From positions 1 through 43,687 of the forward strand of contig JBGTNQ010000005.1 in NCBI GenBank assembly GCA_041742965.1: a stretch of DNA of 43,687 bases, read 5' to 3'. This DNA comes from Minisyncoccia bacterium (GTDB lineage: Bacteria > Patescibacteriota > Minisyncoccia > Phycocordibacterales > Zambryskibacteraceae). The translations under genes and the position numbers were made by a program. The notes under the pieces are model-generated. The model was not told the DNA's origin and made no database searches. It saw only the letters and a program-made list of their open reading frames with translations. Position 1 is the stretch's first letter, and each line of letters opens with the position of its first letter. Positions 2 to 11,483 of the stretch are shown one piece after another.

Positions 2-616
2 ATAAATAAATTTTTTACCATCGAATAAATTCGGGTCTTGTATTAATTCAATACTAAATGGGGCTGGCGCATTATTATCATTAGCAACAATTTCTTTCCA
101 TTTATCCTGGGGCTCTGCTTTCTTATCACCAATTAATATCGTAGAAATATTTTTAGTTATATCTACAGATGTACCTAAGCCATCATTTAAATATGCAGTT
201 ATTTTATTTGGAGTAATTGTGAAATTACCAGATTCGTTAATCTTAACTATAATCTTGAAAAGCAGAACCCTGTCACCACTTATGCCCCCAGGAACTCCCC
301 CAACAAAAGAAATCTTGTGACTCTCTTCGAGTGATGGCTTCCTTGGCCATATAGAAAAAACAGAATTCGCTAAAATAATTTCTCGAATTTCAAAATTATC
401 ATTGCGCTCATCAGACAAAGACAGAGATCCATCAATGGAATTTATCGTCTGCCCTTCTGTATTTAAATACACCTCCAATATACTAGTGTCTTCTGCAAAA
501 ACTGCACTGATACTTGAAACATTAATAGTCGCCGAGAAAGCCAAACTAGGAGCAAGTAAGGTAATTAGCAAAAAAACTTTTGAAAGATTATTCATTTTGA
601 AAGATTCGTATTTCAT
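2..616 (-). CDS. Secreted cohesin-like domain protein (3' end runs off the window; not in the ORF track)
   Basis: Manual translation MKYESFKMNNLSKVFLLITLLAPSLAFSATINV...LEVYLNTEGQTINSIDGSL...SVFSIWPRKP...ISFVGGVPGG...AYLNDGLGT is open to the window edge. It has a Sec-type signal and motifs typical of CPR cohesin-domain proteins, and starts 3 nt after the dockerin gene stop. Confidence 0.75.
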   Translation of the reverse strand, partial: MKYESFKMNNLSKVFLLITLLAPSLAFSATINVSSISAVFAEDTSILEVYLNTEGQTINSIDGSLSLSDERNDNFEIREIILANSVFSIWPRKPSLEESHKISFVGGVPGGISGDRVLLFKIIVKINESGNFTITPNKITAYLNDGLGTSVDITKNISTILIGDKKAEPQDKWKEIVANDNNAPAPFSIELIQDPNLFDGKKFIY

Positions 617-619
617 GTT

Positions 620-3046
620 CTATAAAGGTTTTTTACCCCATTGATAAAGCATAATAGAGAAATCAACCGAATCAACCTTATTATCTTTATTTATATCTAC
701 ACATGGATTTTTAAATGGAGAACTTGTTTTCCAGAAGAAAAGTAGGATTGAGAAATCGGTAGAATTCACTAAACTATCTTTATTAAAATCGGCACCATTG
801 CAAGATCCCTCGGTTACCGCTGGTACACCACCTCCCCCTCCACCACCACCGCCACTGCCACTAGGGGGTGGGGTGGAAGAAGGGACGGTAAATACTCTAG
901 ATGCTCCAGAACGTTCGGTACCGAAGTACACTACTAATTTAAAATAATATGTACCAGCCGTAGAAACTGCGGCCGACAAACTTGTATTCCAATCTTCGCC
1001 AGGATTTATGTATTTTGCGGCTGAAGCATAATATGCATCATCATTGCCACCACATTGATTATTTAAATCAGAAACCACACACCATTCATATTGATATTCA
1101 TAACCGGTCAGGCCTTCGTTTGTAATTGTCACATTACCTAAAATGTTACTAATACTATTCACAGTCACAGAGTTTATTAACACTTGAGCCGGTGAACCGG
1201 AGACTTCCCAATAATCATTGGTTTGAACTATTTTTCCACTCTCAACTTCAGTAGAAATAAGTGTCTCCCAAAGTCCTTGGGCCGCTGCACTGTTTACAGA
1301 ATATGTATATTCATAGACTCCAGTACTTACTAAAGTCATGGCCACACCAGACACAACTACATTTCGATCCACATCATAAAGTGTTACCGTGGGCGTAGCA
1401 AAGGGCGCGGCTGGAGTTGCACTGCCATCTAAAATAAATATTTTTGCTCTATAAACCTTACCCGTTTGCACTCGCTCTATATTACTCATTTTGACAGACC
1501 AAGTATCTGCTCCAGATACAGCAGAAACTGCAACATCAAGATTTGAAGTCACCTGTTCACCAATAGAACCAATGGTGGTTAGTGTTGAAGATAAAACATT
1601 CCAAACATCTGCAGCTGTAATGTCATTACCATAGTTAGAAAGTGTTCTAGTGCCATTTGCCCAGACCGCTGCGGCTACTGCAGAAGTGGAATAGTCAGAA
1701 AGTGTTCGGGTTGCCGAAGCCCAGACATCAGCCGCAGTTAGGTTGCTTGTACCTCGAGTGGAAACTTGAGTATCTAAATTATCTACCACCAATTTCCCAA
1801 TACTACCAATGGCCGTAAGACCAGATGTTGCACTGTCCCAAATGGCATCAACGGAGGCATTTGAAATATCTACATTAGAAGTTAAACTCCTCGTTCCAGC
1901 AGCCCAGACATCAGTAGCTGAGATGTTATTAAGCGCAGCAACTGCAGTTAATACATCAGAAATTTGTGCGTCTATGTTTGTAGCCACCTGTTCACCAATA
2001 GAGCCAGTGGTGGTTAGTGTTGAAGATAAAACATTCCAAACATCTGCAGCTGTAATGTCATTACCATAGTTAGAAAGTGTTCTAGTGCCATTTGCCCAGA
2101 CTCCAGCTACGACAGCATCTACGCCCGTAGTCGATAGTGTTCGGGTTGCCGAAGCCCAGACATCAGCCGCAGTTAGGTTGCTTGTACCTCGAGTGGAAAC
2201 TTGAGTATCTAAATTATCAATTACTAATTTACCAATGCCACCAAAAGAGGTGATGCTTGATGTTGCTCTATCCCAAATCGCTCCCACGGACGCACTGTCT
2301 ATAGTAACGCTTCCAGAATTAATGGAACGGGTTCCATAAGCCCAAACATCAGCTGCAGAAATATTATTTAAAGCATTTATTAAGGCTTTATTTGCGTGAA
2401 TCTCTGCTATAACCGTCACATCAGATGCGTCAATATAACTCTCTGTTGCAAGAGAGCCTCCACCCGAAATATTATTAGTTGTTAGCTGTCGAGTGGGAGC
2501 GAAAGTGTTATTCCAAATATCAGCCGCCAGAGCTCCAAATGAAGTTAACGTACGGCTTCCACTTCCCCAAACACTGGCCGCAGTATCAACGACCAACGTA
2601 CCAAAAGACGTCAATGTTCGTGTTCCGTTTGCCCAAACAGAAGAAGCAATAGAGGCATCGGTCACTACTGGGTTTCTTAAAATAAAAGACTTATCTAATT
2701 TTAATAGATCACCACCTATAAGTGTTCCGCAAGTGATAAAAGTAGGATATTTCCCTTCAACTCCTGGTGTAGCATAAGAATAATAATGCCAACCAGTCGC
2801 AACCGCAGTCATGACCACCTCGTTTACAAGCACTACACCCGCTGGAGAGTAAATAGAAATAGTGCAATCGTCGGTTGTGGGTGTGTAATCATCCTCATAT
2901 ATAAATTCCCCTATAACAACAGTGTCTCCAGGAACATATACTTCGGTAGCATAAACAGTGTTTGCGGAGAAAATTGCAAATATCAAAAAAATACTCGTAC
3001 CAAACAAAACACAAATTATTTTATTTTTTAAATTATTTATTATCAC
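620..3046 (-). CDS. Large secreted protein: Sec signal, Ig-like domains, Trp-containing (DVWxxxTRTL) repeats, Pro/Gly linker, C-terminal dockerin type I-like domain
   Basis: Signal peptide ends at VYA. Many A-D/A-VW-x3-TRTLS repeats. Paired EF-hand-like motifs DFNKDSLVNSTDF and DINKDNKVDSVDF follow PPPSGSGGGGGGGG. Confidence 0.8.
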   Translation of the reverse strand: MIINNLKNKIICVLFGTSIFLIFAIFSANTVYATEVYVPGDTVVIGEFIYEDDYTPTTDDCTISIYSPAGVVLVNEVVMTAVATGWHYYSYATPGVEGKYPTFITCGTLIGGDLLKLDKSFILRNPVVTDASIASSVWANGTRTLTSFGTLVVDTAASVWGSGSRTLTSFGALAADIWNNTFAPTRQLTTNNISGGGSLATESYIDASDVTVIAEIHANKALINALNNISAADVWAYGTRSINSGSVTIDSASVGAIWDRATSSITSFGGIGKLVIDNLDTQVSTRGTSNLTAADVWASATRTLSTTGVDAVVAGVWANGTRTLSNYGNDITAADVWNVLSSTLTTTGSIGEQVATNIDAQISDVLTAVAALNNISATDVWAAGTRSLTSNVDISNASVDAIWDSATSGLTAIGSIGKLVVDNLDTQVSTRGTSNLTAADVWASATRTLSDYSTSAVAAAVWANGTRTLSNYGNDITAADVWNVLSSTLTTIGSIGEQVTSNLDVAVSAVSGADTWSVKMSNIERVQTGKVYRAKIFILDGSATPAAPFATPTVTLYDVDRNVVVSGVAMTLVSTGVYEYTYSVNSAAAQGLWETLISTEVESGKIVQTNDYWEVSGSPAQVLINSVTVNSISNILGNVTITNEGLTGYEYQYEWCVVSDLNNQCGGNDDAYYASAAKYINPGEDWNTSLSAAVSTAGTYYFKLVVYFGTERSGASRVFTVPSSTPPPSGSGGGGGGGGGVPAVTEGSCNGADFNKDSLVNSTDFSILLFFWKTSSPFKNPCVDINKDNKVDSVDFSIMLYQWGKKPL
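1550..2218. repeat. Intragenic direct repeat, 435-bp (145-aa) period
   Basis: Approximately 1573-1666 matches 2008-2101, and approximately 1701-1783 matches 2136-2218, essentially exactly at DNA level. Confidence 0.9.
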
Positions 3047-3106
3047 AAATGCATCGTGAAAAATAAAAATGCATTATCAAAAATATAAAGTTGAATCTAT
3101 CAAAAT

Positions 3107-3280
3107 CTATTTTTTATCTTGATTATTGATACCACCCTTATCATTGTCTTTTAAAATACCTGTCAAATTCTTAAGGGCCTGAACTAAGTTCTTTGCAAGC
3201 TCGGGTATTTTTTTAGCTCCAAACAAAAGCACAATAACAACAGCTATAATTATGATTTCTTTTGGTCCTAATCCAAACAT
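3107..3280 (-). CDS. tatA: Twin-arginine translocase TatA/TatE family subunit (copy 1, 57 aa)
   Basis: MFGLGPKEIIIIAVVIVLLFGAKKIPELAK: polar E8, FG hinge and amphipathic helix. The true start is the ATG at 3280, not 3328. Confidence 0.9.
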   Translation of the reverse strand: MFGLGPKEIIIIAVVIVLLFGAKKIPELAKNLVQALKNLTGILKDNDKGGINNQDKK

Positions 3281-3296
3281 ATGATTTAACGAAATT

Positions 3297-3328
3297 GTGA
3301 CGCGCAACTGTCTTTTTTGGCGCGACAC
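3297..3328 (-). promoter_or_regulatory. Inverted repeat upstream of tatA copy 1
   Basis: GTGACGCGC-N14-GCGCGACAC, 16 nt upstream of the ATG. Confidence 0.6.
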
Positions 3329-3353
3329 TCATTCGAAATTAAATTAATAAATA

Positions 3354-3509
3354 TTATTTCTTTTCCTCATCAGCATCTTTAAATGCCCCGAAAATGTGCC
3401 GTACTGCATCAGCGATTGCTTTTGTGAGTTCGGGAATTTTCTTTGACCCAAAAAGGAGCACGATAAGCACAACTACTATTATGATTTCTTTTGGTCCTAA
3501 TCCAAACAT
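3354..3509 (-). CDS. tatA: Twin-arginine translocase TatA/TatE family subunit (copy 2, 51 aa; missed by the ORF track)
   Basis: Manual translation MFGLGPKEIIIVVVLIVLLFGSKKIPELTKAIADAVRHIFGAFKDADEEKK. The first 11 codons are shared with copy 1. Confidence 0.9.
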   Translation of the reverse strand: MFGLGPKEIIIVVVLIVLLFGSKKIPELTKAIADAVRHIFGAFKDADEEKK

Positions 3510-3525
3510 ATGATTTTGCTAAATC

Positions 3526-3557
3526 GTGTCGCATAACCTTGACGCAAAATGCGACAC
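3526..3557 (-). promoter_or_regulatory. Inverted repeat upstream of tatA copy 2
   Basis: GTGTCGCAT-N14-ATGCGACAC, 16 nt upstream of the ATG. Confidence 0.6.
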
Positions 3558-3568
3558 TTATTATATTT

Positions 3569-4300
3569 TTAAGTTAGTAAATTACGACCATTATTATTTT
3601 TTCTATTCAAAAAAACCGTAAGCTCAAAGAGCAAGACTAATGGCGCCGCCATTAGTATTAATGATAGACCATCAGTTGGTGGAAGTAAAGATACTAGGAT
3701 GAACACCACCACAAAAGCGTGCCTTCTTTTTGAACGCAAAAAATTAACACTTACAATTCCTAAACGCATTAAGAAGGTTAATATCAAGGGGAAAGTAAAA
3801 AGTAGTCCCAGAAGAGAGGATGTCAAAACTATTTGTGAGACAAATTTAGTTATGTCCCAATAGTTTGCAATACCAATACTAGCATTTACTTTTGCCATTA
3901 ATTTTATACCGTAATAAAGCATCCCTCCCCCATACAAAAATCCAAAAATAAATAATAGTAATCCGAGAGGAAGCGACAATACAAATATTTTTCTTTCAGC
4001 TTTTAGTAATCCCGGTTTCAAAAAAGAATATAGGTGATAAATAAATATTGGCAAGGTAATGATGCAGGCAGAAAAGAAGCCCACACTCATTGCAAATTCT
4101 ATCAACTGGAATGGTGAAGTCGTAACTATAGTAACATCAGTAATATTAAAATAAGCTATGAAAAAACGAATGACTGGAGTAGTGACAAGAAAACCAATTA
4201 TAAAACAAATTACAAAAACTTTAGTAAGAAAAAGGAGCTTGGCTCGTAATTCTTCGAAATATACACCATATTTAGCAAGACTTCTTTGAAAATTATTCAC
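3569..4300 (-). CDS. tatC: Twin-arginine translocase subunit TatC
   Basis: YFEELRAKLL, SPFQ, YSFLKPGLLKAERK and LLPPTDGLSLILMAAPLVLLFE motifs; about 6 TM segments. Likely GTG start at 4300, just after the upstream ORF stop. Confidence 0.92.
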   Translation of the reverse strand: MNNFQRSLAKYGVYFEELRAKLLFLTKVFVICFIIGFLVTTPVIRFFIAYFNITDVTIVTTSPFQLIEFAMSVGFFSACIITLPIFIYHLYSFLKPGLLKAERKIFVLSLPLGLLLFIFGFLYGGGMLYYGIKLMAKVNASIGIANYWDITKFVSQIVLTSSLLGLLFTFPLILTFLMRLGIVSVNFLRSKRRHAFVVVFILVSLLPPTDGLSLILMAAPLVLLFELTVFLNRKNNNGRNLLT

Positions 4301-4304
4301 GGTG

Positions 4305-4481
4305 CTACTCAGACATAATAAAAACATTACCACCTGCGGTCGGTGCTTCTAAAAGCAAATATTGCGTACTATTGGTTTCAACCAAAATATCAGCCAAAAG
4401 ACCAGCATAAACAGCAGAAGGTATTTCTATAATGAAGTCCTGTCCTTCACCCTCTTGATAATTTATATCTTCAAGCGCCAT
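4305..4481 (-). CDS. Small acidic hypothetical protein (58 aa; missed by the ORF track)
   Basis: MALEDINYQEGEGQDFIIEIPSAVYAGLLADILVETNSTQYLLLEAPTAGGNVFIMSE exactly fills the gap, with 5-nt and 4-nt spacing to its neighbours. Confidence 0.75.
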   Translation of the reverse strand: MALEDINYQEGEGQDFIIEIPSAVYAGLLADILVETNSTQYLLLEAPTAGGNVFIMSE

Positions 4482-4486
4482 AAATT

Positions 4487-5119
4487 TTAACCTATTTTTC
4501 TTTTAACCTTTCTTTTAATCATACTAACGGGTTCTTCGGTTGTAATAACCTCTGGGGCAACCACATCTTCTATTGCGGGGATATTTTCAGGCAAAACTTC
4601 TTGTTCAATTACTTCTTCTGGTATAGGTTCGACAATAGTTTCATTTTCTACAGGCACATTTTCTTCAGGCATATTTTCTACAGGCACATTTTCTTCAATC
4701 GGTTTTTCAATTTCTTCTATTGACCTTTCTTTTTCTTCAATAAACTTTTCAGTATCTACCATTTGATTTTCCATATTTTCTTTTTCGGCATTCAGTGTTT
4801 GGTTTAAGGATTCTGGTTCGAGGGTACCATTATTCATTTTAGCCAAAAGTTCGTTGTTCATTCGTACATAAGACGCAGAAGTATGAGTAGAGTTAGGGTC
4901 AATCTCAAGTATAGTATTGCCTAATTCAATGTGGTCATTATAAAGATACACCAACCCGCCATATATTATAAATTGCGCCTGAAAAGCCCCCGCTATAAAG
5001 TCGGGATTTTTAATATCATAAAACTCAATCAGGGCTGTGTCTTCATAGTCTCCAGTCGCTGTAGCCACTCGTAGATTTTCATTCTCAGCAATTATTTGAT
5101 CTTTTATAATATGAATCAT
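4487..5119 (-). CDS. Hypothetical protein with Glu/Pro-rich acidic C-terminal region and basic tail
   Basis: 210-aa ORF in the operon. A 30-bp-period duplication at 4643-4697 encodes EENVPVEN twice; the protein ends KRKVKRKIG. Confidence 0.75.
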   Translation of the reverse strand: MIHIIKDQIIAENENLRVATATGDYEDTALIEFYDIKNPDFIAGAFQAQFIIYGGLVYLYNDHIELGNTILEIDPNSTHTSASYVRMNNELLAKMNNGTLEPESLNQTLNAEKENMENQMVDTEKFIEEKERSIEEIEKPIEENVPVENMPEENVPVENETIVEPIPEEVIEQEVLPENIPAIEDVVAPEVITTEEPVSMIKRKVKRKIG

Positions 5120-5120
5120 A

Positions 5121-7250
5121 TTAATTTTGCGTGAGTAATGCTCTTACTTTTATATCATCAGCCAAAGCGAGTGGTGTATAACGAATATAAGTAATGTCAT
5201 TTGCTTTATCATTAGAATTATAGGCGCCCCAGGTGGCTCCATCGTCCGTTGATTTTTCCCAAACACCCGCTGGACTTACTGTAGTATCGTCTACTAAAGG
5301 CCCAGAGCCTGTTACTGCATCGTACAATCGAACCCTAAGCTCTGGGACAGTACCACCGAATGCGGTGGAGAATCTCCAAGCAAAAGTCTTTCCTACTGTA
5401 GATGATTGGGCTACTGATGGCTGATAGTGAGAATCTGTTGTATTGTCTTCATAAACCAAAGATAAACTATATATTCTTGCCGGAATACAAGTAGTACCTA
5501 GTATTCTAAATTCAAACATAAATTGAATTTCTGTAGATGGAACCAAGTAAGCCAAATCCCCAGAATCTTCTATAATTACCCATGATCCTGTATTATCATC
5601 TATGCCATTCAGTCGATAGTACATTCTAAACGGCTCCAAAGACATACCTAGTGTTCCATTGCCAAGCATTCTTTCGCTGTCTACATACAATTTTGAGTAA
5701 GAAATTGCATTAGGAGTCAACATCTTTGGAGTAATCAATTGCTGATTAAAAGTTCCTGACGCATAAGCCCAGTGTGCACCAATAGGTAGAGAGTATATTT
5801 GATTTAATGTAGCAGCTGTTCCGTTTCTACATAAAAAACCAATTCCATTTTCAACCCAAGCTGAAAAAACAGATGCATTAATAGAAGGGTGAACAACTGC
5901 ATCAGAATCTGCTGTATTCTGGTCAAGCTGCTTATCTTCAGCTAAAAATATATGGTCAAATTGTTCTCCTGATGTTTGGTACCTCGTTACATAGCTTCTG
6001 ACACCAGCAGCCCCAGAACTCATTACAATAAGTCTATCAATCGTGTCACTTACTTCTACAGAGCTAAGGGCATTAGTTAATGCATATGTTGTTGATCCCC
6101 CCGGTGGGTTTTCTGTCATTGAATCTGATTGCCAAGTGGTGTTACCACTAGTTATATTAACCAATTCAGCTCTAAAGACACGAGAGACTGTAACGAAATA
6201 TAAACACTTCACGCCAACACCTGGGCCATGATTTAGTGTGCCTATTCTTCCATTATTTATCTGTGTTACTACGGTTGCGGGGTTTTGCGCACCTGTAACT
6301 AAAACAAAACCACTAGTTGTTTTACCCGAAGCTATAGATGTTAAAGGGGCACGAATGTTATATTTATAAACTCTGCAGGTTGTCGTGGTTCCATCAATTA
6401 CATAAATATATTGTTGTGTCCAAGAATCTTTTTCATCAATAGCAAGACCACAAGAGATTGTATTCGTAACCGTTCCCGCATCAGCAAGCCAATAAACAGC
6501 TCTTATATTGTCTATTGTAGTAGCTGCTGGTATGGTAGTCCCACCGGGCGCAAAAGCCAGTGGTTGTAAACCTTTCACTAAGAAAACACCACCATTTGTT
6601 AATGTGGCATTTGTTGTGGATACTGCAATACTTAAATCTTCAATTACGTAATCTCCACTAGCTATTATTCCAGCATCTGTTGTAAGTGTTATGCCCGTAT
6701 TAGAATTAATACTTGAAATTTCATACCATGTAGATATTTGTGCTGCGTCAGTAGAACCAAAACCGATTCTGCACCCCACTGATAAACCACTATCAGCCCA
6801 TGCTGTGCCTACTCCCGTTACTGTTGTTCCGTTTACCGAGGCAGTACCTGTAGTATATAATTCTCTTGCCACTCTAAAACCTCTTATTGTATGAGCAGTT
6901 GCTGTCGGAAAGGTTAGTGTTATAAAACCATTCCACTCAAAAGCACTAGAAGAAACTACATATTCATACATTACTATTCTTCTTGTCGCTGCCGCAGTAG
7001 AGTTTTCTGAAAGAAAAATCCAATATTTATCATCACTAAGTTTAAGTACATGGGGGTATGCCGAAGCAATAGGAACACCTGCCTCCATTGGTCTTCCTAT
7101 GCCAATTTTCATTGGACCGGCAAATTTATCAACGGACGTGGCACCTGTATACTGCTTTATTAAATCACCAAGCATCGTTTTTGTTGCATCATAAGAAGAA
7201 TACGGAACCGTATCTCCTGTAAAAAAATGTTCTGCTGCTCTTTTTGCCAT
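5121..7250 (-). CDS. Large beta-rich hypothetical protein without signal peptide; phage-structural-like motif
   Basis: Likely start MAKRAAEHFF at 7250, 4 nt after the upstream stop. Thr/Ser/Gly-rich. YTTGTASVNGTTVTGVGTAW resembles motifs of tail-fibre/baseplate proteins. Confidence 0.75.
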   Translation of the reverse strand: MAKRAAEHFFTGDTVPYSSYDATKTMLGDLIKQYTGATSVDKFAGPMKIGIGRPMEAGVPIASAYPHVLKLSDDKYWIFLSENSTAAATRRIVMYEYVVSSSAFEWNGFITLTFPTATAHTIRGFRVARELYTTGTASVNGTTVTGVGTAWADSGLSVGCRIGFGSTDAAQISTWYEISSINSNTGITLTTDAGIIASGDYVIEDLSIAVSTTNATLTNGGVFLVKGLQPLAFAPGGTTIPAATTIDNIRAVYWLADAGTVTNTISCGLAIDEKDSWTQQYIYVIDGTTTTCRVYKYNIRAPLTSIASGKTTSGFVLVTGAQNPATVVTQINNGRIGTLNHGPGVGVKCLYFVTVSRVFRAELVNITSGNTTWQSDSMTENPPGGSTTYALTNALSSVEVSDTIDRLIVMSSGAAGVRSYVTRYQTSGEQFDHIFLAEDKQLDQNTADSDAVVHPSINASVFSAWVENGIGFLCRNGTAATLNQIYSLPIGAHWAYASGTFNQQLITPKMLTPNAISYSKLYVDSERMLGNGTLGMSLEPFRMYYRLNGIDDNTGSWVIIEDSGDLAYLVPSTEIQFMFEFRILGTTCIPARIYSLSLVYEDNTTDSHYQPSVAQSSTVGKTFAWRFSTAFGGTVPELRVRLYDAVTGSGPLVDDTTVSPAGVWEKSTDDGATWGAYNSNDKANDITYIRYTPLALADDIKVRALLTQN

Positions 7251-7254
7251 AAAT

Positions 7255-7923
7255 TTATACTTCCAAATAATCGATGTTAATTTGCACTGTGGTTGTGCCA
7301 GATATGACGCAGTATAACACTTCATTTACCCCGCCTTCAATATAATTTGGGTGGTTATTTGCACCATAAAGCCCTCCGGTCTTTGGTGAGACATATTTTT
7401 CGTGATCTGTACCTCCTGCAGAAAACCTGAAAGACACGGAAGTAGCATCTGCGTTCAAAGAAAAACGTGACGCATATACTCGTATTTTTTTACCAGACGC
7501 AGGAGTAAGAACGTTTCCTGACACAGACAAACTAATGGACAACTTCTCTACGCCCTGACCCTCAATGATGGAATTCAACGTCTCTTCTGTCGCAGGATTA
7601 ATCCTAGTATTGCTGTCATTCTTGAGGCCAACTACATTTGACGTGGGAGTACTTCCCGCAACATAAGCATTAACTGATTTAGGAAGTAGAGTGGAGGCAG
7701 CCAATCCAAGTCCAGCCACTCCGGCTACTTTTAGAAACAATCTTTTATTATCGTCTACAGATGCATTGTCGGTTTTAGTTACTATTTCAATTTTTTTTTC
7801 TTTCTTTGATACTTTAAGGTTTTTTTCTTTTTTATAAATTCCATCAACTCGAAGTGTCGAAAAACTACTTTTTTTAAAAGCTTTTTTTGATTTAAGATCT
7901 AAATAGTCTTTTGCGTCAGTCAT
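7255..7923 (-). CDS. Putative Tat substrate with internal KR-type twin-arginine signal
   Basis: Residues 59-86 are NKRLFLKVAGVAGLGLAASTLLPKSVNA, after a Lys-rich 58-aa n-region. First gene of the tatC/tatA operon. Confidence 0.7.
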   Translation of the reverse strand: MTDAKDYLDLKSKKAFKKSSFSTLRVDGIYKKEKNLKVSKKEKKIEIVTKTDNASVDDNKRLFLKVAGVAGLGLAASTLLPKSVNAYVAGSTPTSNVVGLKNDSNTRINPATEETLNSIIEGQGVEKLSISLSVSGNVLTPASGKKIRVYASRFSLNADATSVSFRFSAGGTDHEKYVSPKTGGLYGANNHPNYIEGGVNEVLYCVISGTTTVQINIDYLEV

Positions 7924-8036: not shown

Positions 8037-8621
8037 TTACCGCCCCTTCTTTCCTAACTTATTTATTTTTCTTTTTATCTGCTCCCTCCTCCACATACCA
8101 AAGTGTTTCAAAAAACCAAACTTGTATAGCTTGATCGGAGAAAAACCGGCGAAGCCTAAAATTCCCTTCCTAATTTCATTTGTAGTATCACCAAAAAGAA
8201 TACGAAGAACAAAAGGAACCGAGTCAGATGTGACGACGACGGTGGCACTTCTCCCTCTCAAAAGTCTTTTCCATGTATATCCTCCACTTAGGAAATGATA
8301 AGCAAATCCTGGCGTCCAAGCTCTGTCGAAAACGCCTTTTAGCAAGGCCGGCATACTAGAAAACCAAGTTGGATAAAATATAACAAAATGGTCACACCAT
8401 TTCACATTTTCTTGAAAAGCCATTAAATCCGGTTCTAATTCTTGAATCTCCCTATATCCTTTGTGGAGCACTGGATCAAACTCCATATCACCGATATTTT
8501 GCCTTCTAACTTCGTGACCGGCTCCAAGCGCCCCCTTTTCATACTCACCAGCAAGAGTGCCGTTTAAACTATCAGAGTCAGGATGACCGAGTAATATAAA
8601 AATATTTTTACTTTTTGCCAT
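8037..8621 (-). CDS. NAD(P)H-dependent oxidoreductase, flavodoxin-2 / NAD(P)H:quinone dehydrogenase family
   Basis: ILLGHP..S.N, YPTWFSSMPALLKGVFDR and PGFAY motifs. Confidence 0.9.
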   Translation of the reverse strand: MAKSKNIFILLGHPDSDSLNGTLAGEYEKGALGAGHEVRRQNIGDMEFDPVLHKGYREIQELEPDLMAFQENVKWCDHFVIFYPTWFSSMPALLKGVFDRAWTPGFAYHFLSGGYTWKRLLRGRSATVVVTSDSVPFVLRILFGDTTNEIRKGILGFAGFSPIKLYKFGFLKHFGMWRREQIKRKINKLGKKGR

Positions 8622-8864: not shown

Positions 8865-9671
8865 TTATTTCTTTCTTAGTTTTACAAGTCCGCCGTGCAA
8901 ACCACCAAAATCACCAAGTGAGGCTCTTCTGAGAGGAGGTATTACCGGAAAACTCTTTAAAGCTCCTTTTAAATATTTTTCTGTATCAATTATAGAGATA
9001 CCAACATCATTCATCATTGACCCTCCCAAAACAATCACAGATGGAGACCAGTTTACCACAATATTATTTAACCCATAGGCCAATACCTTGGCCAACCCAT
9101 CCCAAAGTCTAGGGTCATTAATCTCCTCCGGCTTTCTTCCTGTTTTCTCAAGCACCGCACTACCAGAAACCAAATTTTCTAGAGTATCTCCATGAGAGTC
9201 TATAATCTGCCTACCAGGCTCAAATCCTATAGATCTTTCGTCTATCTCTCCATTAACAATTCTGGCCCCACCAACACCGGTACTAACGGTAATATAAGCC
9301 ACAATATCAAAGCCTCTCCCCGCACCATAGACAGCCTCACCAAGGCCGACAAGGGCTGCGTCATTATCCATAATAACCTCTGCCCCAAAAAGCTTGGCTA
9401 ATTCACTGCGAACCGGTTTATCGATCCATCCTATAAGATTATTACCACTTAAAATTACTCCCTTATTTTGATCGAAAAGTCCGGCAATTCCGCCAGCTAT
9501 ATGGGTAATCTTTTCCTCTTTAGAAATCTTCAAAATATTGTTTTTTAATAGTTCAATTCCCTCATCAAAATTCTTTGGTGTTTGAAAAACTACAGGCACA
9601 TCGAAAGTGTCAGCATCTATGACTCTAGCTATCCTTGTTTTAGTTCCACCTATATCAAAAAGTATTTTCAT
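8865..9671 (-). CDS. ROK family sugar kinase (glucokinase-like)
   Basis: DIGGTK, NDAALVGLGE, TVSTGVGG and LENLVSG motifs; adjacent to pgi. Confidence 0.9.
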   Translation of the reverse strand: MKILFDIGGTKTRIARVIDADTFDVPVVFQTPKNFDEGIELLKNNILKISKEEKITHIAGGIAGLFDQNKGVILSGNNLIGWIDKPVRSELAKLFGAEVIMDNDAALVGLGEAVYGAGRGFDIVAYITVSTGVGGARIVNGEIDERSIGFEPGRQIIDSHGDTLENLVSGSAVLEKTGRKPEEINDPRLWDGLAKVLAYGLNNIVVNWSPSVIVLGGSMMNDVGISIIDTEKYLKGALKSFPVIPPLRRASLGDFGGLHGGLVKLRKK

Positions 9672-9717
9672 CTCTTGTTTTAATTTCTCTTTTTTATCAT
9701 TCGGTGTTTCTCATTCG

Positions 9718-11025
9718 TCATTTGTCATCTCCTGAAAGCATTTCTTTCGCTCTCTTTTTATATTCCTCTACATTTGGCTGATTGAAAATATTTACATTCC
9801 AAAGGGCTCCAAGGTAAATAGTCTCGAACATTGCATAAGCCATATACTCTCCGAGAGACTTAAGTGACACATCCTTAAGGACAACGTCTACATATGGTAA
9901 ATCATTTTTGAAATATGATTCTTGAGCAGAAACTAAAAGAGTTTGATTTAAATCTCCAGTACTTTTTTTAGAAACAGATTTTTCTATCAGGTCCAAAGTC
10001 TCTCCATCACCAATTGCCTCTCCTTGAAAATCATCCGCAGAAACAAAAGTGGTCACACGGTTACGTGGCCCAGCTAACACAAGTTGCAAAGTAGAGTGGA
10101 GGTCCACGGAACCAATAGACACTGTAGGCGCTAAGCCCACATGATCCTTCTCTCCTTCTATATTTTCATCTTTACCCAAGCTTTCTGCCACAAGTTGTTT
10201 GTGCCATTTTCCCAAAGTTTCAAGTCTTGGAGTAAAGAAGAACAGGTCATATATATACATTCCATTTGCATAATGCTCATCTATGGCCACAGCATTTTGA
10301 AAAGCAAAACTGTCCATGTCTAAAGAATTTTCCATAGACTCTTTTGCTCCAGAAAGAAATTCATCAAACAAAAAACCATAGAGTCCCAAAGGAACTAGAG
10401 TTGTGGGAGAAAAAGCTGAAAATCTGTCTGACAAAACTTCTGGCAGAGCAATCTTGGTTATTTGTTTTTCTTCTGCTTCATTCCAAAGAGGAGAACCTTC
10501 CTTTGAAACCACCACTATACGATCTTTTACATTTTCAAATTTCTGTTCTAGATGGAATGTCAGAAATTCAGCATTGGCCATAACCTCAAGGGTCTCTCCG
10601 GATTTACTTACTACTACTATCACAAAATCATCTACGCTTTCAAAAGATTTTAAAAGCAGGAGCACAGGCTCTGTGATAGCAGTATCTAGGACATCTAAAA
10701 AAACCATCTTCCTAGGCAAATCATATATGGCCTCCCCGTGTCCGACGATAGCATCATAGACTGCCTTTGACGCAAGATTAGCACCTCCAATACCAACAAC
10801 AAACACTATCTTAGGAAGGTTGTTTTTTGTTTTCTCCGATACAATATCTTTTATTTCACTTATTGTCTTCTCATCAGACAAAAAAGAAAGGAAGCTTTCT
10901 GGAGTTTTATATAAAAAATCCTTTGAAGCGGCGGAGAGTTCTAAAATCCGAGGCCTTAAGGCTTCTTTTGCAGAAATAATAGAATCCCCGCTAACTTTCA
11001 TTGGCTGACGAATAGATAAGTTCAT
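9718..11025 (-). CDS. pgi: Glucose-6-phosphate isomerase
   Basis: VGIGGANL, VSKSGETLE, RFS, QLVAESLGK, DLHS and FNQPNVEEYK motifs. ATG lies 6 nt after TATACT. Confidence 0.9.
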   Translation of the reverse strand: MNLSIRQPMKVSGDSIISAKEALRPRILELSAASKDFLYKTPESFLSFLSDEKTISEIKDIVSEKTKNNLPKIVFVVGIGGANLASKAVYDAIVGHGEAIYDLPRKMVFLDVLDTAITEPVLLLLKSFESVDDFVIVVVSKSGETLEVMANAEFLTFHLEQKFENVKDRIVVVSKEGSPLWNEAEEKQITKIALPEVLSDRFSAFSPTTLVPLGLYGFLFDEFLSGAKESMENSLDMDSFAFQNAVAIDEHYANGMYIYDLFFFTPRLETLGKWHKQLVAESLGKDENIEGEKDHVGLAPTVSIGSVDLHSTLQLVLAGPRNRVTTFVSADDFQGEAIGDGETLDLIEKSVSKKSTGDLNQTLLVSAQESYFKNDLPYVDVVLKDVSLKSLGEYMAYAMFETIYLGALWNVNIFNQPNVEEYKKRAKEMLSGDDK

Positions 11026-11054
11026 GCACAAAGTATACTACAGCAAACCGAAGC

Positions 11055-11483
11055 TTAAAGGGCCACAATCTTCTCCATATCCTCTTGAAGACCTGGGGTG
11101 GATTCATAGTTTTTTGCATCTTCTGGAGAAATCCAAACAAGTTCTGAGTGTTCCCAAGAAAGTTTGATGTTAGGATTTGTTATTTCTGCCAAAAACATAT
11201 GACGAATCCACTCCCTGTCTAAGTTCTTATCAACAAAAAGATAGGTGTCCCCTTTTTTAATTTCCTTTACATCTTCTTTTTTTAGACCAAGCTCCTCTTC
11301 AAGTTCAAACATCACTTTTTCTTCCATTGTCTTTTCATCATCTACAAACCCAGCCAAGCAGGACCATAGTCCCTGATAAGTAAGCATTTTTTCACTTCTT
11401 TTCACCAAAAGAAATTTGTCCCGATATTTTACGAATATAACAATAACGGGAGCAGATTTCGCATGAGTATAATCTGTTGCCAT
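11055..11483 (-). CDS. NUDIX hydrolase
   Basis: G.WSCLAGFVD...ELEEELGL Nudix-like box and LSWEH motif. Confidence 0.85.
   Translation of the reverse strand: MATDYTHAKSAPVIVIFVKYRDKFLLVKRSEKMLTYQGLWSCLAGFVDDEKTMEEKVMFELEEELGLKKEDVKEIKKGDTYLFVDKNLDREWIRHMFLAEITNPNIKLSWEHSELVWISPEDAKNYESTPGLQEDMEKIVAL

Follow-up and report, generated by a model that had tools for sequence, protein, structure and literature searches.

A Patescibacteria gene cassette that probably couples a dedicated TatAC translocase to phage-related proteins and a dockerin/cohesin-like scaffold

Introduction

In Bacillus subtilis, phoD lies in the same operon as tatAd-tatCd. Hydrogenase-2 and DmsAB are cases of Tat "hitchhiker" export. 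Cellulosome anchors carry SLH or sortase signals, and known phage tail machines are released by lysis or by a dedicated secretion apparatus. B. subtilis is described as running two operon-encoded TatAC systems in parallel (PMC13673990), and hitchhiker export of hetero-oligomers is described for Escherichia coli PaoABC (PMC4273604). The locus analyzed here resembles both arrangements: a two-component TatA/TatC is encoded beside the cargo it would serve, as in phoD-tatAd-tatCd, and one signal-bearing subunit is encoded beside signal-less partners, as in the hitchhikers.

The locus occupies the start of the window, a 43,687-nt stretch of contig JBGTNQ010000005.1 from a Minisyncoccia bacterium. 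We read it, with a probability of roughly 55%, as a captured phage host-recognition complex that leaves the cell already folded, through a TatAC of its own, and is then retained by a dockerin/cohesin-like scaffold.

Results

Layout and genomic position. The original prediction described nine co-oriented genes, mostly 1-5 nt apart. All nine open reading frames were confirmed as intact and lie on the minus strand at the predicted places (Table 1). The spacing holds at five of the eight junctions, as the gaps in gene order are 4, 1, 5, 4, 59, 73, 60, and 3 nt; the 59-, 73-, and 60-nt gaps depart from it. The contig end cuts cohesin-like gene 1, and the cassette runs past base 2 of the window. Another contig from this genome, G000:C6, shares 20 nt with the window start and continues the reading frame; it supplies the remainder of this gene and a second cohesin-like gene, for 10 genes in total. 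The host genome is 0.6 Mb in size and 98.6% complete. The cassette lies exactly between nqo and ychF, and close relatives lack it; these two genes are directly adjacent in a cassette-less relative of the same family. The cassette is an accessory island in Patescibacteria, ultra-small bacteria of the candidate phyla radiation (CPR).

Table 1. Cassette features in the window and on contig G000:C6 of the same genome.
Feature	Position	Strand	Basis
222-aa Tat-signal protein	7255..7923	-	ORF, 21-sequence alignment, AF2 model
Tat-type signal peptide core, residues 57-86 of 222-aa protein	7666..7755	-	Alignment, Kyte-Doolittle
709-aa signal-less beta-propeller protein with C-terminal beta-sandwich part(s)	5121..7250	-	ORF, fold comparison, viral homologues; start MAKRA... 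as in all 20 homologues, ORF open from 7325
Inserted ~70-aa domain like phage tail-fibre N-termini, residues 131-203 of 709-aa protein	6642..6860	-	phrog_1591 tail fiber protein, E 4.5e-8
210-aa acidic protein	4487..5119	-	N-terminus MIHIEKDQ... conserved in 20 loci
58-aa acidic protein	4305..4481	-	Conserved N-end (MALTDVNFQEGEGQDF), C-end FIMSE; 20/20 genome loci
tatC, 243 aa	3569..4300	-	PF00902, 128 bits, E 4e-37, model positions 3-208 of 208; start from called 243-aa protein, ORF open to 4333
tatA copy 1, 51 aa	3354..3509	-	PF02416, 39.4 bits vs cut-off 21
tatA copy 2, 57 aa from MFGLGPKE	3107..3280	-	PF02416, 49.6 bits; ORF open to 3328, paralogue alignment begins at 3280
808-aa surface protein	620..3046	-	Pfam Dockerin_1, MG2; repeat analysis
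Cohesin-like protein 1, N-terminal 205 aa, Sec-type signal	2..616, on to G000:C6:6837-6535	-	20-nt overlap, frame continues
Cohesin-like protein 2	G000:C6:6542-5100		G000:C6 overlap, in-frame continuation

Conservation. The same genes were found together in 21 species-level Patescibacteria genomes and on 56 metagenome contigs, with content kept and order permuted. Among the 21 genome loci, presence was scored wherever sequence covers the place in question: the 222-, 210-, and 58-aa genes and TatC were each found in 20 of 20, the 808-aa gene in 19 of 19, and cohesin-like genes in 17 of 17. Eleven genome loci are co-linear, seven have the 808-aa and cohesin genes divergent upstream, one has tatCAA first, and two are too short for classing. 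Among metagenome loci, the 709-aa gene lies directly downstream of the 222-aa gene in 42 of 44; of the 14 that include the 58-aa gene and continue for 800 nt or more past it, 13 have TatC. Six cassette genes gave dN/dS values of 0.03-0.13 for the closest pair of loci (58-aa gene, 0.033, L015 vs L016). That the nine genes form a functional unit is borne out by this conservation around homologous tatC genes, which persists in the genome and metagenome loci despite rearrangement. One metagenome locus (L069) counts against our main reading: it carries the 222-aa gene, three 709-aa copies, and the 210- and 58-aa genes, followed by pilin genes where tatC would be expected.

The Tat system. The translocase is a minimal TatAC, with one TatC and one or two TatA proteins, and the cassette copy is the only tatC in the genome. 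Compared with six other TatC loci read in the class, the cassette TatC is about 27% identical and has different neighbors. The best 120 relatives listed are at least 57% identical across 81-96% of the query. The cassette TatC belongs to a subfamily of its own. In a heuristic scan of the whole genome, the full Tat motif occurred only on the 222-aa protein, the first gene of the cassette, and the many conventional substrates that would speak against a private system were not found. The Tat system therefore looks dedicated, as proposed, given the single tatC, the restricted motif, and the distinct subfamily. Its premise that Tat is uncommon in CPR bacteria also fits, with TatC above cut-off in 15 of 401 sampled genomes of the class, this one included. 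Energy supply counts against the main reading. Tat needs a proton-motive force, yet neither ATP synthase (PF00006, PF00137) nor H+-pyrophosphatase (PF03030) was found in this 98.6%-complete genome. PF00006 was present in only one of five further carrier genomes, leaving five of six carriers overall without ATP synthase.

The 222-aa protein. This protein consists of a Lys-rich disordered N-region, an NKRLFLK motif, an h-region, a VNA|Y site, and a C-terminal jelly-roll (residues about 120-222; AF2 pLDDT 85-93 across residues 130-222). Many small uncultured-phage proteins match the jelly-roll fold at TM 0.6-0.73. The signal core opens with D-D-N-K-R-L-F-L-K, followed by a hydrophobic stretch and an A-x-A site; across the family, the motif is D-x-x-[K/R]-R-x-F-L-K followed by a mildly hydrophobic stretch and A-x-A. 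D57, R61, F63, L64, K65, and the Ala at -1 (A86) do not vary among the 21 sequences aligned. Maximum Kyte-Doolittle hydrophobicity is 1.82, below that of the cassette's Sec-type signals (2.57 for the 808-aa signal). The predicted Tat-like signal is thus upheld by its conserved motif, h-region, and A-x-A site, with the qualification that the window form is the K-R variant. At the twin position, genome loci carry 18 K-R and 3 R-R, and the 53 metagenome loci with the N-end present carry 38 K-R and 15 R-R. K-R signals are less effective in E. coli. The K-R form in the window and the unusually long N-region ahead of the motif (about 57 residues from the annotated start) were both counted against the main reading.

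The 709-aa protein and its phage relatives. The propeller fold spans residues about 46-500. Of 1252 protein clusters for the 709-aa protein, none had a Pfam match or a name. The inserted tail-fibre-like domain occurs once in the window protein and three times in most homologues (comparison with G040). Homologues were found on 24 viral loci, 23 of them full-length (40-58% identity); the other (L056) shows only the C-terminal part, clipped by the locus start. Carriers include complete 360-520-kb jumbo phages. L039 also encodes tail sheath, tail tube, terminase, and portal, in L035 the homologue is flanked by tail-fibre genes, and in L048 it comes after the major head protein gene. The 222-709 pair is adjacent in phage loci L044, L048, and L049. 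In the four phage 222-like proteins, the jelly-roll is kept and a coiled-coil N-terminus replaces the Tat signal; two of the four (L048, L060) keep the VG-x-K...INPAT motif. Of 28 viral loci, six have a 210 homologue beside the 709 gene, five of them on its downstream side and L045 on its upstream side; a 58-like viral match was seen once, weakly. The description "phage-like structural proteins" is therefore literally true for the 709-, 222-, and 210-aa proteins, which have relatives in viral loci, and this phage link is new in the present analysis. In the 709 tree, the CPR clades group with the viral clade that includes L044, L048, and L049, each with a 222-like neighbor (SH-aLRT 93); the tree is unrooted and is compatible with transfer either way between phages and cells.

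If the cassette were what is left of a prophage in decay, or a phage "moron" that does nothing for the cell, this would account for 709, 222, and 210 families common to phages and for its all-or-none occurrence in close relatives. This origin is extremely unlikely. The flanks (pgi, glk, nqo, ychF, leuS) contain no capsid, terminase, integrase, or tail genes, every gene is intact under the low dN/dS given above, and the cassette recurs in at least 21 species-level genomes. None of the 28 viral loci, taken with up to 10 kb of flank, contained TatC, 808, or cohesin, its constant companions in cells, and TatC was found in none of five jumbo-phage records with the 709 gene (CheckV: four 100% complete, one 34%).

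Structural matches also suggest that the cargo could be an enzyme rather than an adhesin, the propeller acting as a secreted glycan depolymerase, in the manner of the endosialidase tail spikes of phages, that cuts the capsule or a wall polymer of a host to gain access or to feed. Endosialidases and bacterial sialidases are among the top Foldseek matches (4hiz, E 3e-6; 1v0e; 3gvj; 1eut), the K1E tail spike also turned up, and the sequence holds one Asp-box-like S-T-D-D-G-A-T-W. However, TM-scores are about 0.2, the VIA Z of about 14 is generic, being matched by dozens of unrelated propellers, no sialidase family in Pfam or NCBIfam matched the sequence, and no catalytic residues were identified in the protein. 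We regard a depolymerase as unlikely.

Partners of the 222-aa protein. The 210-aa protein has a conserved N-domain of ~110 aa, a variable acidic linker, and a short basic C-end. Like the 709-aa and 58-aa proteins, it has no signal and no hydrophobic segment. It is therefore conceivable, though doubtful, that the 222-aa jelly-roll is the only Tat cargo, and that the other three are cytoplasmic, serving as folding or modification factors or in a co-inherited, unrelated phage-derived function. Their putative partnership with the 222-aa protein rests on co-occurrence, and the latter's invariant His, Glu, and Asp residues (21-sequence alignment) are possible ligands of a metal or cofactor, whose presence would classically call for Tat export. 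Against this, the phage 709 family sits among tail-fibre or virion genes and so acts outside the cell there, and 222-709 adjacency is shared by the phage and cellular loci. Two or three consecutive 709 matches also occur in 7 of 56 metagenome loci (L061, L069, L073, L076, L077, L083, and L107), with three full-length paralogues read in L069. Such tandem paralogue arrays are typical of receptor-binding proteins, not of chaperones.

The scaffold. The 808-aa protein contains a Sec-type signal, an N-terminal beta domain, 11 Trp repeats, MG2/Ig-like domains, and a Gly run, and ends in a type I dockerin (650-790) with two Ca-binding-like repeats. Both its predicted features were confirmed: the Trp repeat is a ~20-aa V/I-W-x(4-5)-R/S-T/S-L unit, and Dockerin_1 scores 26.1 bits against the Pfam cut-off of 22.9. 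The MG2 domain was also matched. Each of the two cohesin-like proteins begins with a Sec-type signal and ends in a membrane anchor. Their cohesin identity survives as a lead from ESM Atlas, in which protein 1 (feature score 0.90, structure TM 0.79) resembles clusters aligning over PF00963 Cohesin, but curated models give no support: 0 of 17 members matched Pfam, and PDB profile matches to cohesins were not significant (E 0.27 and 0.69).

Discussion

Functional unit, private Tat, and phage kinship are the parts of the original prediction that held; we infer the putative binding, export, and display of the cassette proteins from co-occurrence, as we do carriage of the 709-aa by the 222-aa protein, seating of this cargo on the dockerin/cohesin scaffold, and host attachment. 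In the proposed mechanism, the 709-aa propeller would fold in the cytoplasm, as phage fibre proteins do, perhaps aided by the 210- and 58-aa proteins, and would then bind the jelly-roll of the 222-aa protein, whose Tat signal stands where phage versions have their coiled coil. The private TatAC would translocate this complex in its folded state, as in hitchhiker export. Signal peptidase would cleave after the conserved A-x-A site, or the signal would remain as a membrane anchor. The 808-aa protein would leave by Sec and dock through its dockerin on the two cohesin-like anchors, and together these could keep the complex at the cell surface or extend it there. Its likely purpose is binding another cell or a surface glycan, for example on the host of an episymbiont. 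Tat cargo has an upper size limit; if the propeller is a trimer, like many phage fibres, the complex would exceed known Tat cargo sizes, which would count against this reading.

A displayed or shed copy of a phage receptor-binding protein might instead mask a receptor or compete with phages. The close kinship of the cargo to phage proteins in the 709 tree and the patchy, accessory distribution suit such a defence or competition device, but a dockerin and cohesin membrane scaffold seems more elaborate than masking would need, and we consider it very unlikely.

The proposed host-recognition complex differs from the described systems. Compared with phoD-tatAd-tatCd, the cassette cargo is not a cofactor- or phosphate-related enzyme but a jelly-roll followed by three signal-less proteins with phage homologues; its signal is mostly K-R, and the cassette adds a dockerin protein and two cohesin-like anchors. 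Known hitchhikers are redox enzymes assembled around cofactors, whereas the presumed passenger here is a 77-kDa phage-kin beta-propeller (~97 kDa in 885-aa forms) in a putative partnership. A second Tat cassette type in the class, found in at least three of the six other TatC loci read (L027, L029, L032; L030 and L031 were read in part), has a 76-87-aa RRxFLK protein adjoining a tatC only about 27% identical. It lacks 709, 222, 808, and cohesin genes; radical-SAM-like proteins and surface proteins of very large size are encoded nearby instead.

As in cellulosome-type scaffoldins, a secreted multi-domain protein ends in a type I dockerin beside membrane-anchored proteins with a cohesin-looking N-domain. 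Unlike in cellulosomes, no glycoside hydrolase or carbohydrate-binding module was detected in the cassette, the cohesin domains fall below the Pfam model, and the anchors are C-terminal transmembrane helices. Tailocins, extracellular contractile injection systems, and type VI secretion likewise represent cells using kin of phage virion parts. Sheath, tube, baseplate, and ATPase are absent from the cassette, and PHROG matches among six cassette proteins were confined to tail-fibre families; it keeps only the fibre/host-recognition end, whose release would go via Tat. Coupling its own folded-protein exporter to phage-shared proteins and a docking scaffold, the cassette probably builds an attachment device on the cell surface, of a type that has not been described before.

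Conservation and genomic setting of the cassette

We scanned the 709-aa beta-propeller family against one genome per prokaryote species and recovered 21 loci, comprising 19 genomes labelled Patescibacteria and two short contigs labelled Gammaproteobacteria. The presence of each remaining cassette gene was determined by tblastn and counted where a locus had sequence (see the table below). The original prediction had proposed examining whether the neighbourhood of tatC is conserved, and the same gene set indeed recurred across the 21 genome loci with its order permuted. Eleven loci were co-linear with the window, seven carried the 808-aa and cohesin-like genes divergently upstream, and one began with tatC-tatA-tatA. 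The remaining two were too short to class, as L012 stops at tatA and L025 stops inside the 709-aa gene. That content has been kept despite a shuffled order argues for function over inherited synteny.

Within this shuffling, the 709-aa gene directly followed the 222-aa jelly-roll gene in all 20 genome loci whose upstream side is covered. Scanning metagenomes with the 222-aa family added 56 further loci, and the same adjacency was found in 42 of the 44 with room for a 709-aa gene. TatC was present in 13 of the 14 metagenome loci in which the 58-aa gene is followed by 800 nt or more of sequence; in L069, the fourteenth, pilin genes come next. Two or three consecutive 709-aa matches occurred in seven metagenome loci, those of L069 being three full-length paralogues. 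For the closest locus pair, dN/dS was 0.03-0.13 for six genes, a set that excludes TatC.

All nine co-oriented genes of the original prediction were intact. Their spacing had been described as mostly 1-5 nt. Measured from homologue-supported starts, the gaps are 4, 1, 5, 4, 59, 73, 60, and 3 nt, such that the description is accurate at five junctions and wrong at three. Contig C5 of a 603-kb genome (98.6% complete) begins with the window, and the first 20 bases of the window are identical to the last 20 of contig C6. As the cohesin-like reading frame runs unbroken through these shared bases, C6 and C5 are neighbours in the genome. C6 provides the membrane-anchored C-terminal end of cohesin-like 1 and a 480-aa cohesin-like 2, followed by ychF, a 307-aa gene, and leuS. 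The cassette is thus ten genes spanning ~9.6 kb.

A cassette-free relative from the same family has the order pgi, glk, a small gene, nqo, 468 nt, ychF, the 307-aa gene, and leuS. In the window's genome, the ten cassette genes are inserted exactly between nqo and ychF. The cassette has thus been gained or lost as one block. The second cohesin-like gene is also followed by ychF in two other carriers, L007 and L013.

On the other side, the window's upstream neighbour is a flavodoxin-like quinone reductase gene, which is also found in a cassette-free relative. In the co-linear carriers L007 and L013, inspection by eye of the upstream regions identified an ECF-type sigma factor-like gene with a presumed anti-sigma gene, a lamin-tail-domain-like surface protein, and an NDH-2-like flavoprotein. 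Scans for promoter-like sites (38 versus 26.6 ± 5.1 expected) and terminator-like sites (3 versus 6.3 expected) were not informative. One DNA run was listed as containing the stretch, and no RNA datasets were.

Coordinates and occurrence of cassette genes and related features (L, loci; G, genomes; occurrence as loci with the gene over loci counted)
Feature	Location	Coordinates	Genome loci	Viral loci	Remark
Cassette, nine genes	window, minus strand	2-7923
222-aa gene			20/20	4/28	222-like in viral loci
709-aa gene				24/28	three in tandem in L045
210-aa gene			20/20	6/28	210-like in viral loci
58-aa gene			20/20
TatC			20/20	0/28
TatA copies	window	3354-3509; 3107-3280
808-aa gene			19/19	0/28
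Cohesin-like genes			17/17	0/28
Shared 20 bases	window; G000:C6	1-20; 6818-6837
Quinone reductase gene	window	8037-8621
Upstream region	L007	6402-8220			co-linear carrier
Upstream region	L013	938-7302			co-linear carrier
709-aa paralogues in tandem	L045	9611-16925			three copies; 479-kb jumbo phage
709-aa paralogues in tandem	L069	9483-17410			three copies
Second Tat cassette	L027 (G273)	9715-11006			TatC ~27% identical to window's
Second Tat cassette	L029 (G105)	5522-6757			TatC ~27% identical to window's
Second Tat cassette	L032 (G088)	9640-11126			TatC ~27% identical to window's

Phage kinship of the putative cargo proteins

Annotation by sequence models was sparse. The 222-, 709-, 210-, and 58-aa proteins and the window's cut last gene had no Pfam match, and PHROGs and NCBIfam were likewise without a match for the 222-, 210-, and 58-aa proteins. 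Sequence-profile searches of the PDB with the 709- and 222-aa families returned only non-significant hits (E 0.16-0.97). For the 709-aa protein, PHROGs matched ~70 residues (131-203) to tail-fibre families (E 4.5e-8).

The C-terminal domain of the 222-aa protein gave a confident eight-stranded jelly-roll model from a 21-row alignment. Its PDB matches were generic (best Z 8.7) and included phage cement proteins and spore-appendage pilins. In a viral library, the best matches (TM at most 0.73) were to small uncharacterised proteins from uncultured tailed phages and to the terminal parts of tail-fibre proteins. The 709-aa model was of moderate quality (pLDDT 64.8), with a predicted beta-propeller at about residues 46-500 and beta-rich C-terminal parts. 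VIA related this propeller to many unrelated propellers at Z ~14, and the top Foldseek matches were podovirus nozzle proteins, endosialidase tail spikes, and sialidases. We take this to indicate only that the propeller is of a type found in phage tails.

A more specific assignment of the 222- and 709-aa proteins, as podovirus adaptor (gp11) and nozzle (gp12), was considered because nozzle proteins ranked first in Foldseek (7y22_Y, E 8e-7) and one viral locus, L048, has the order head protein, 222-like, 709-like. It was not adopted, as the TM was ~0.2 and the family also occurs among fibre genes in sheath-bearing phages. Complex prediction for the 709-aa protein with residues 86-222 of the 222-aa protein scored 0.00 in two runs without controls, which is uninformative either way.

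Relatives of the 709-aa protein are abundant. The family comprises 1252 clusters in a large protein collection, none of them named and none with a Pfam match. An IMG/VR scan found it in 24 viral loci, full length at 40-58% identity in 23 and as the C-terminal part only in L056. Profile searches covering 28 viral loci also recovered 210-like and 222-like genes (see the table). A PHROGs neighbour scan of three of these loci identified all of them as real phages: L039 has tail sheath, tail tube, large terminase, and portal genes; in L035, the 709-aa gene is flanked on both sides by tail-fibre genes; and in L048, it comes after the major head protein. The original prediction's phage-like structural proteins are therefore borne out for the 709-aa family, whose homologues lie in phage structural and tail modules. 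Four of five large viral records are rated complete (362-519 kb), three of these with terminal repeats, and TatC was found in none of the five. A tblastn search of the 50,697 deposited phage records in INPHARED with the 709-aa protein gave no match, so all of its phage relatives are uncultivated.

In an unrooted tree of 45 sequences, the cellular 709-aa copies formed two well-supported clades of 3 and 17. Both grouped with a viral clade of seven (SH-aLRT 93), which includes L044, L048, and L049, each with a 222-like neighbour. Three further viral groups fell outside this grouping. The four phage 222-like proteins have the jelly-roll in common, and two of them (L048 and L060) also share the preceding VG-x-K...INPAT segment. 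They differ where the Tat signal would be. L048 and L060 have long N-terminal regions, which in L048 looks by eye like a coiled coil; the N-terminal region of L049 is unrelated, and L044 has almost none. Alignment of the 222-aa family by hhalign with the gene upstream of the 709-aa homologue in two jumbo phages gave a probability below 1%; a 222-like partner is thus not universal in phages.

Besides the paralogues listed in the table, tandem 709-aa copies occur in L076 and L083. The ~70-residue tail-fibre-like insert is present once in the window, L006, and L007, and three times in most others. Together, tandem copies and variable insert number look like the diversification of a recognition protein.

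A prophage origin of the cassette as it stands was rejected, since the flanking genes are housekeeping genes; no phage or integrase genes flank it. A PHROGs scan of the six non-Tat proteins matched tail-fibre families only, with no sheath, tube, or baseplate genes in the cassette. Compared with the first reading of this locus, the chief new result is that the putative cargo genes are related to phage genes.

A probably dedicated Tat translocase and its signal

TatC matched PF00902 over model positions 3-208 of 208 (128.4 bits versus a cut-off of 25.1, E 4e-37) and contains five hydrophobic blocks on the Kyte-Doolittle scale. It falls under the NCBIfam equivalog cut-off (112.8 versus 132.7). 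Both TatA copies matched PF02416 (39.4 and 49.6 bits versus a cut-off of 21). These are the only two TatA genes in the genome, which has a single TatC, and tatA and tatC are clustered with the gene for the signal-bearing candidate cargo. Both TatA copies start with MFGLGPKE, placing a Lys-Glu pair at the start of the membrane helix. Among 20 carrier loci, nine have two TatA genes and ten have one, with one locus cut at a contig end. One versus two TatA genes may reflect a TatA/TatB-like division of labour.

The premise that Tat is uncommon in the candidate phyla radiation (CPR) agrees with our sampling of the class, in which TatC scored above cut-off in 15 of 401 genomes, the window's included. 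As the 709-aa family was present in only one of these 401, the window's genome, the other TatCs belong elsewhere. Closer to the window, TatC was found in none of four genomes of the same genus, none of 20 elsewhere in the same family, and 2 of 16 in other families of the order. In the literature, TatA and TatC have been reported from Microgenomatia, Paceibacteria, and Saccharimonadia (PMC9166423).

The cassette TatC subfamily contains 597 clusters. The best 120 of the 597 are all at least 57% identical to it, and the named members among these 120 are Pacebacteria, Nomurabacteria, Yonathbacteria, and Campbellbacteria. By comparison, six other TatC loci read from the class are ~27% identical to the cassette TatC. 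At least three of the six (L027, L029, and L032) encode a 76-87-aa RRxFLK protein beside tatC, with the conserved C-terminal end GNFKV...GEEI. The other neighbours in this second Tat cassette are very large surface-type proteins and, in L029, also two genes that look radical-SAM-like by eye. Each of the rare Tat systems in these bacteria may be devoted to a single cargo encoded beside it.

In the window's cassette, the signal belongs to the 222-aa protein. Its family motif is D-x-x-[K/R]-R-x-F-L-K, whose D, R, F, L, and K do not vary across the 21 aligned sequences. A Gly/Ala-rich hydrophobic stretch follows, and then an A-x-A site with an invariant Ala at -1. The motif is K-R in 18 of the 21, including the window, and R-R in three; among the 53 metagenome sequences with the N-terminal end present, 38 are K-R and 15 R-R. 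The cassette points to a naturally occurring family of Tat signals in which K-R outnumbers R-R. Tat signals are typically less hydrophobic than Sec-type signals, and the h-region of the 222-aa protein scores 1.82 versus 2.57 for the cassette's Sec-type signal (Kyte-Doolittle). A loose heuristic pattern scan of all ORFs in the genome gave 29 candidates, with the full x-R-x-F-L-K motif only in the 222-aa protein; most of the other candidates read as apparent membrane anchors or spurious frames.

The Tat translocase is thought to need proton-motive force. In the window's genome (98.6% complete), searches for ATP synthase alpha/beta or c subunits and for H+-pyrophosphatase gave no match, and ATP synthase was found in one of five further carrier genomes (L007, L011, L013, L018, and G040).

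A putative dockerin and cohesin-like scaffold

The 808-aa protein has a Sec-type signal, 11 Trp repeats of ~20 residues each, Ig-like domains, an MG2 domain (Pfam), a glycine run, and a C-terminal type I dockerin encoded at window positions 650-790. The dockerin matched PF00404 at 26.1 bits versus a cut-off of 22.9 (28.6 bits in the genome scan), with its two repeats visible as DFNKDSLVNSTDFSIL and DINKDNKVDSVDFSIM, and is the only dockerin in the genome. For this protein, a tblastn search of INPHARED gave no match, a scan of viral contigs for its family with two peptide patterns confirmed no member, and the nearest Atlas clusters to the Trp-repeat part are viral at scores of 0.86-0.88, below the level that counts.

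Cohesin-like 1 and 2 each carry a signal and a C-terminal membrane helix. Their cohesin identity is a soft call. The cohesin model PF00963 matched none of 17 members, and PDB profiles gave two cohesin chains at non-significant E values of 0.27 and 0.69. Atlas related the domain to clusters whose aligned part is PF00963 (feature score 0.90, structure TM 0.79).

Proposed mechanism and comparison with known systems

Gene content, a conserved signal, an apparently private TatAC, phage kinship, a dockerin, and the signals and anchors of the putative scaffold proteins are established here, and it is from these that we infer function. The propeller protein would fold in the cytoplasm, bind the jelly-roll protein, and be carried through TatAC as a folded complex. 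At the surface, the complex could be held directly, or via the 808-aa protein docked on the two cohesin-like anchors, where it would attach to a glycan or to another cell. Fibre-type proteins of phages are folded, and in many cases oligomeric, before use, which would close the Sec route to them and could explain the use of Tat. Points that weigh against this mechanism, or that it does not account for, are the mostly K-R signal, the pilin genes in place of tatC in L069, the soft cohesin call, and the lack of an ATP synthase match in the window's genome and four of five other carriers.

How such a complex arose is more speculative. To one bolder account we give a probability of roughly 0.3: an ultra-small episymbiont may have taken over the host-recognition end of a phage for its own use. 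The adaptor's virion-attachment N-terminus would have given way to a Tat signal, and a co-evolving private TatAC would export the folded adaptor-propeller to form an attachment organelle mounted by dockerin and cohesin. Cells of this size seem too small for jumbo phages to replicate in. As jumbo phages have the same propeller family, phage and episymbiont may share recognition of surface structures on larger hosts.

Little is known about how bacteria of the CPR select their hosts and attach to them. The cassette offers a defined ten-gene set for testing attachment, which includes a clear candidate for the recognition part. It was found in 21 species-level genomes, and metagenomes add TatC clusters in the hundreds and more than 1000 709-aa family clusters, the latter common to phages. 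No Pfam model exists for the 709-aa family, a component of uncultivated jumbo phages that had no name before. If the proposed mechanism is true, the range of Tat cargo would grow by a new class, namely fibre proteins of phage type that need folding before export, and the translocase in most carriers would run without a recognisable ATP synthase.

We found no description of the cassette in the literature searched. The nearest known systems are the substrate-linked TatAdCd operon of B. subtilis, hitchhiker export of redox-enzyme complexes, cohesin-dockerin display, and domesticated phage tails, each of which has one feature in common with the cassette. None of them combines a private Tat translocase, phage-type structural cargo, and a docking scaffold. 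In kind, the cassette would be a dedicated Tat operon with candidate hitchhiker cargo; the cargo itself is unprecedented among these systems.
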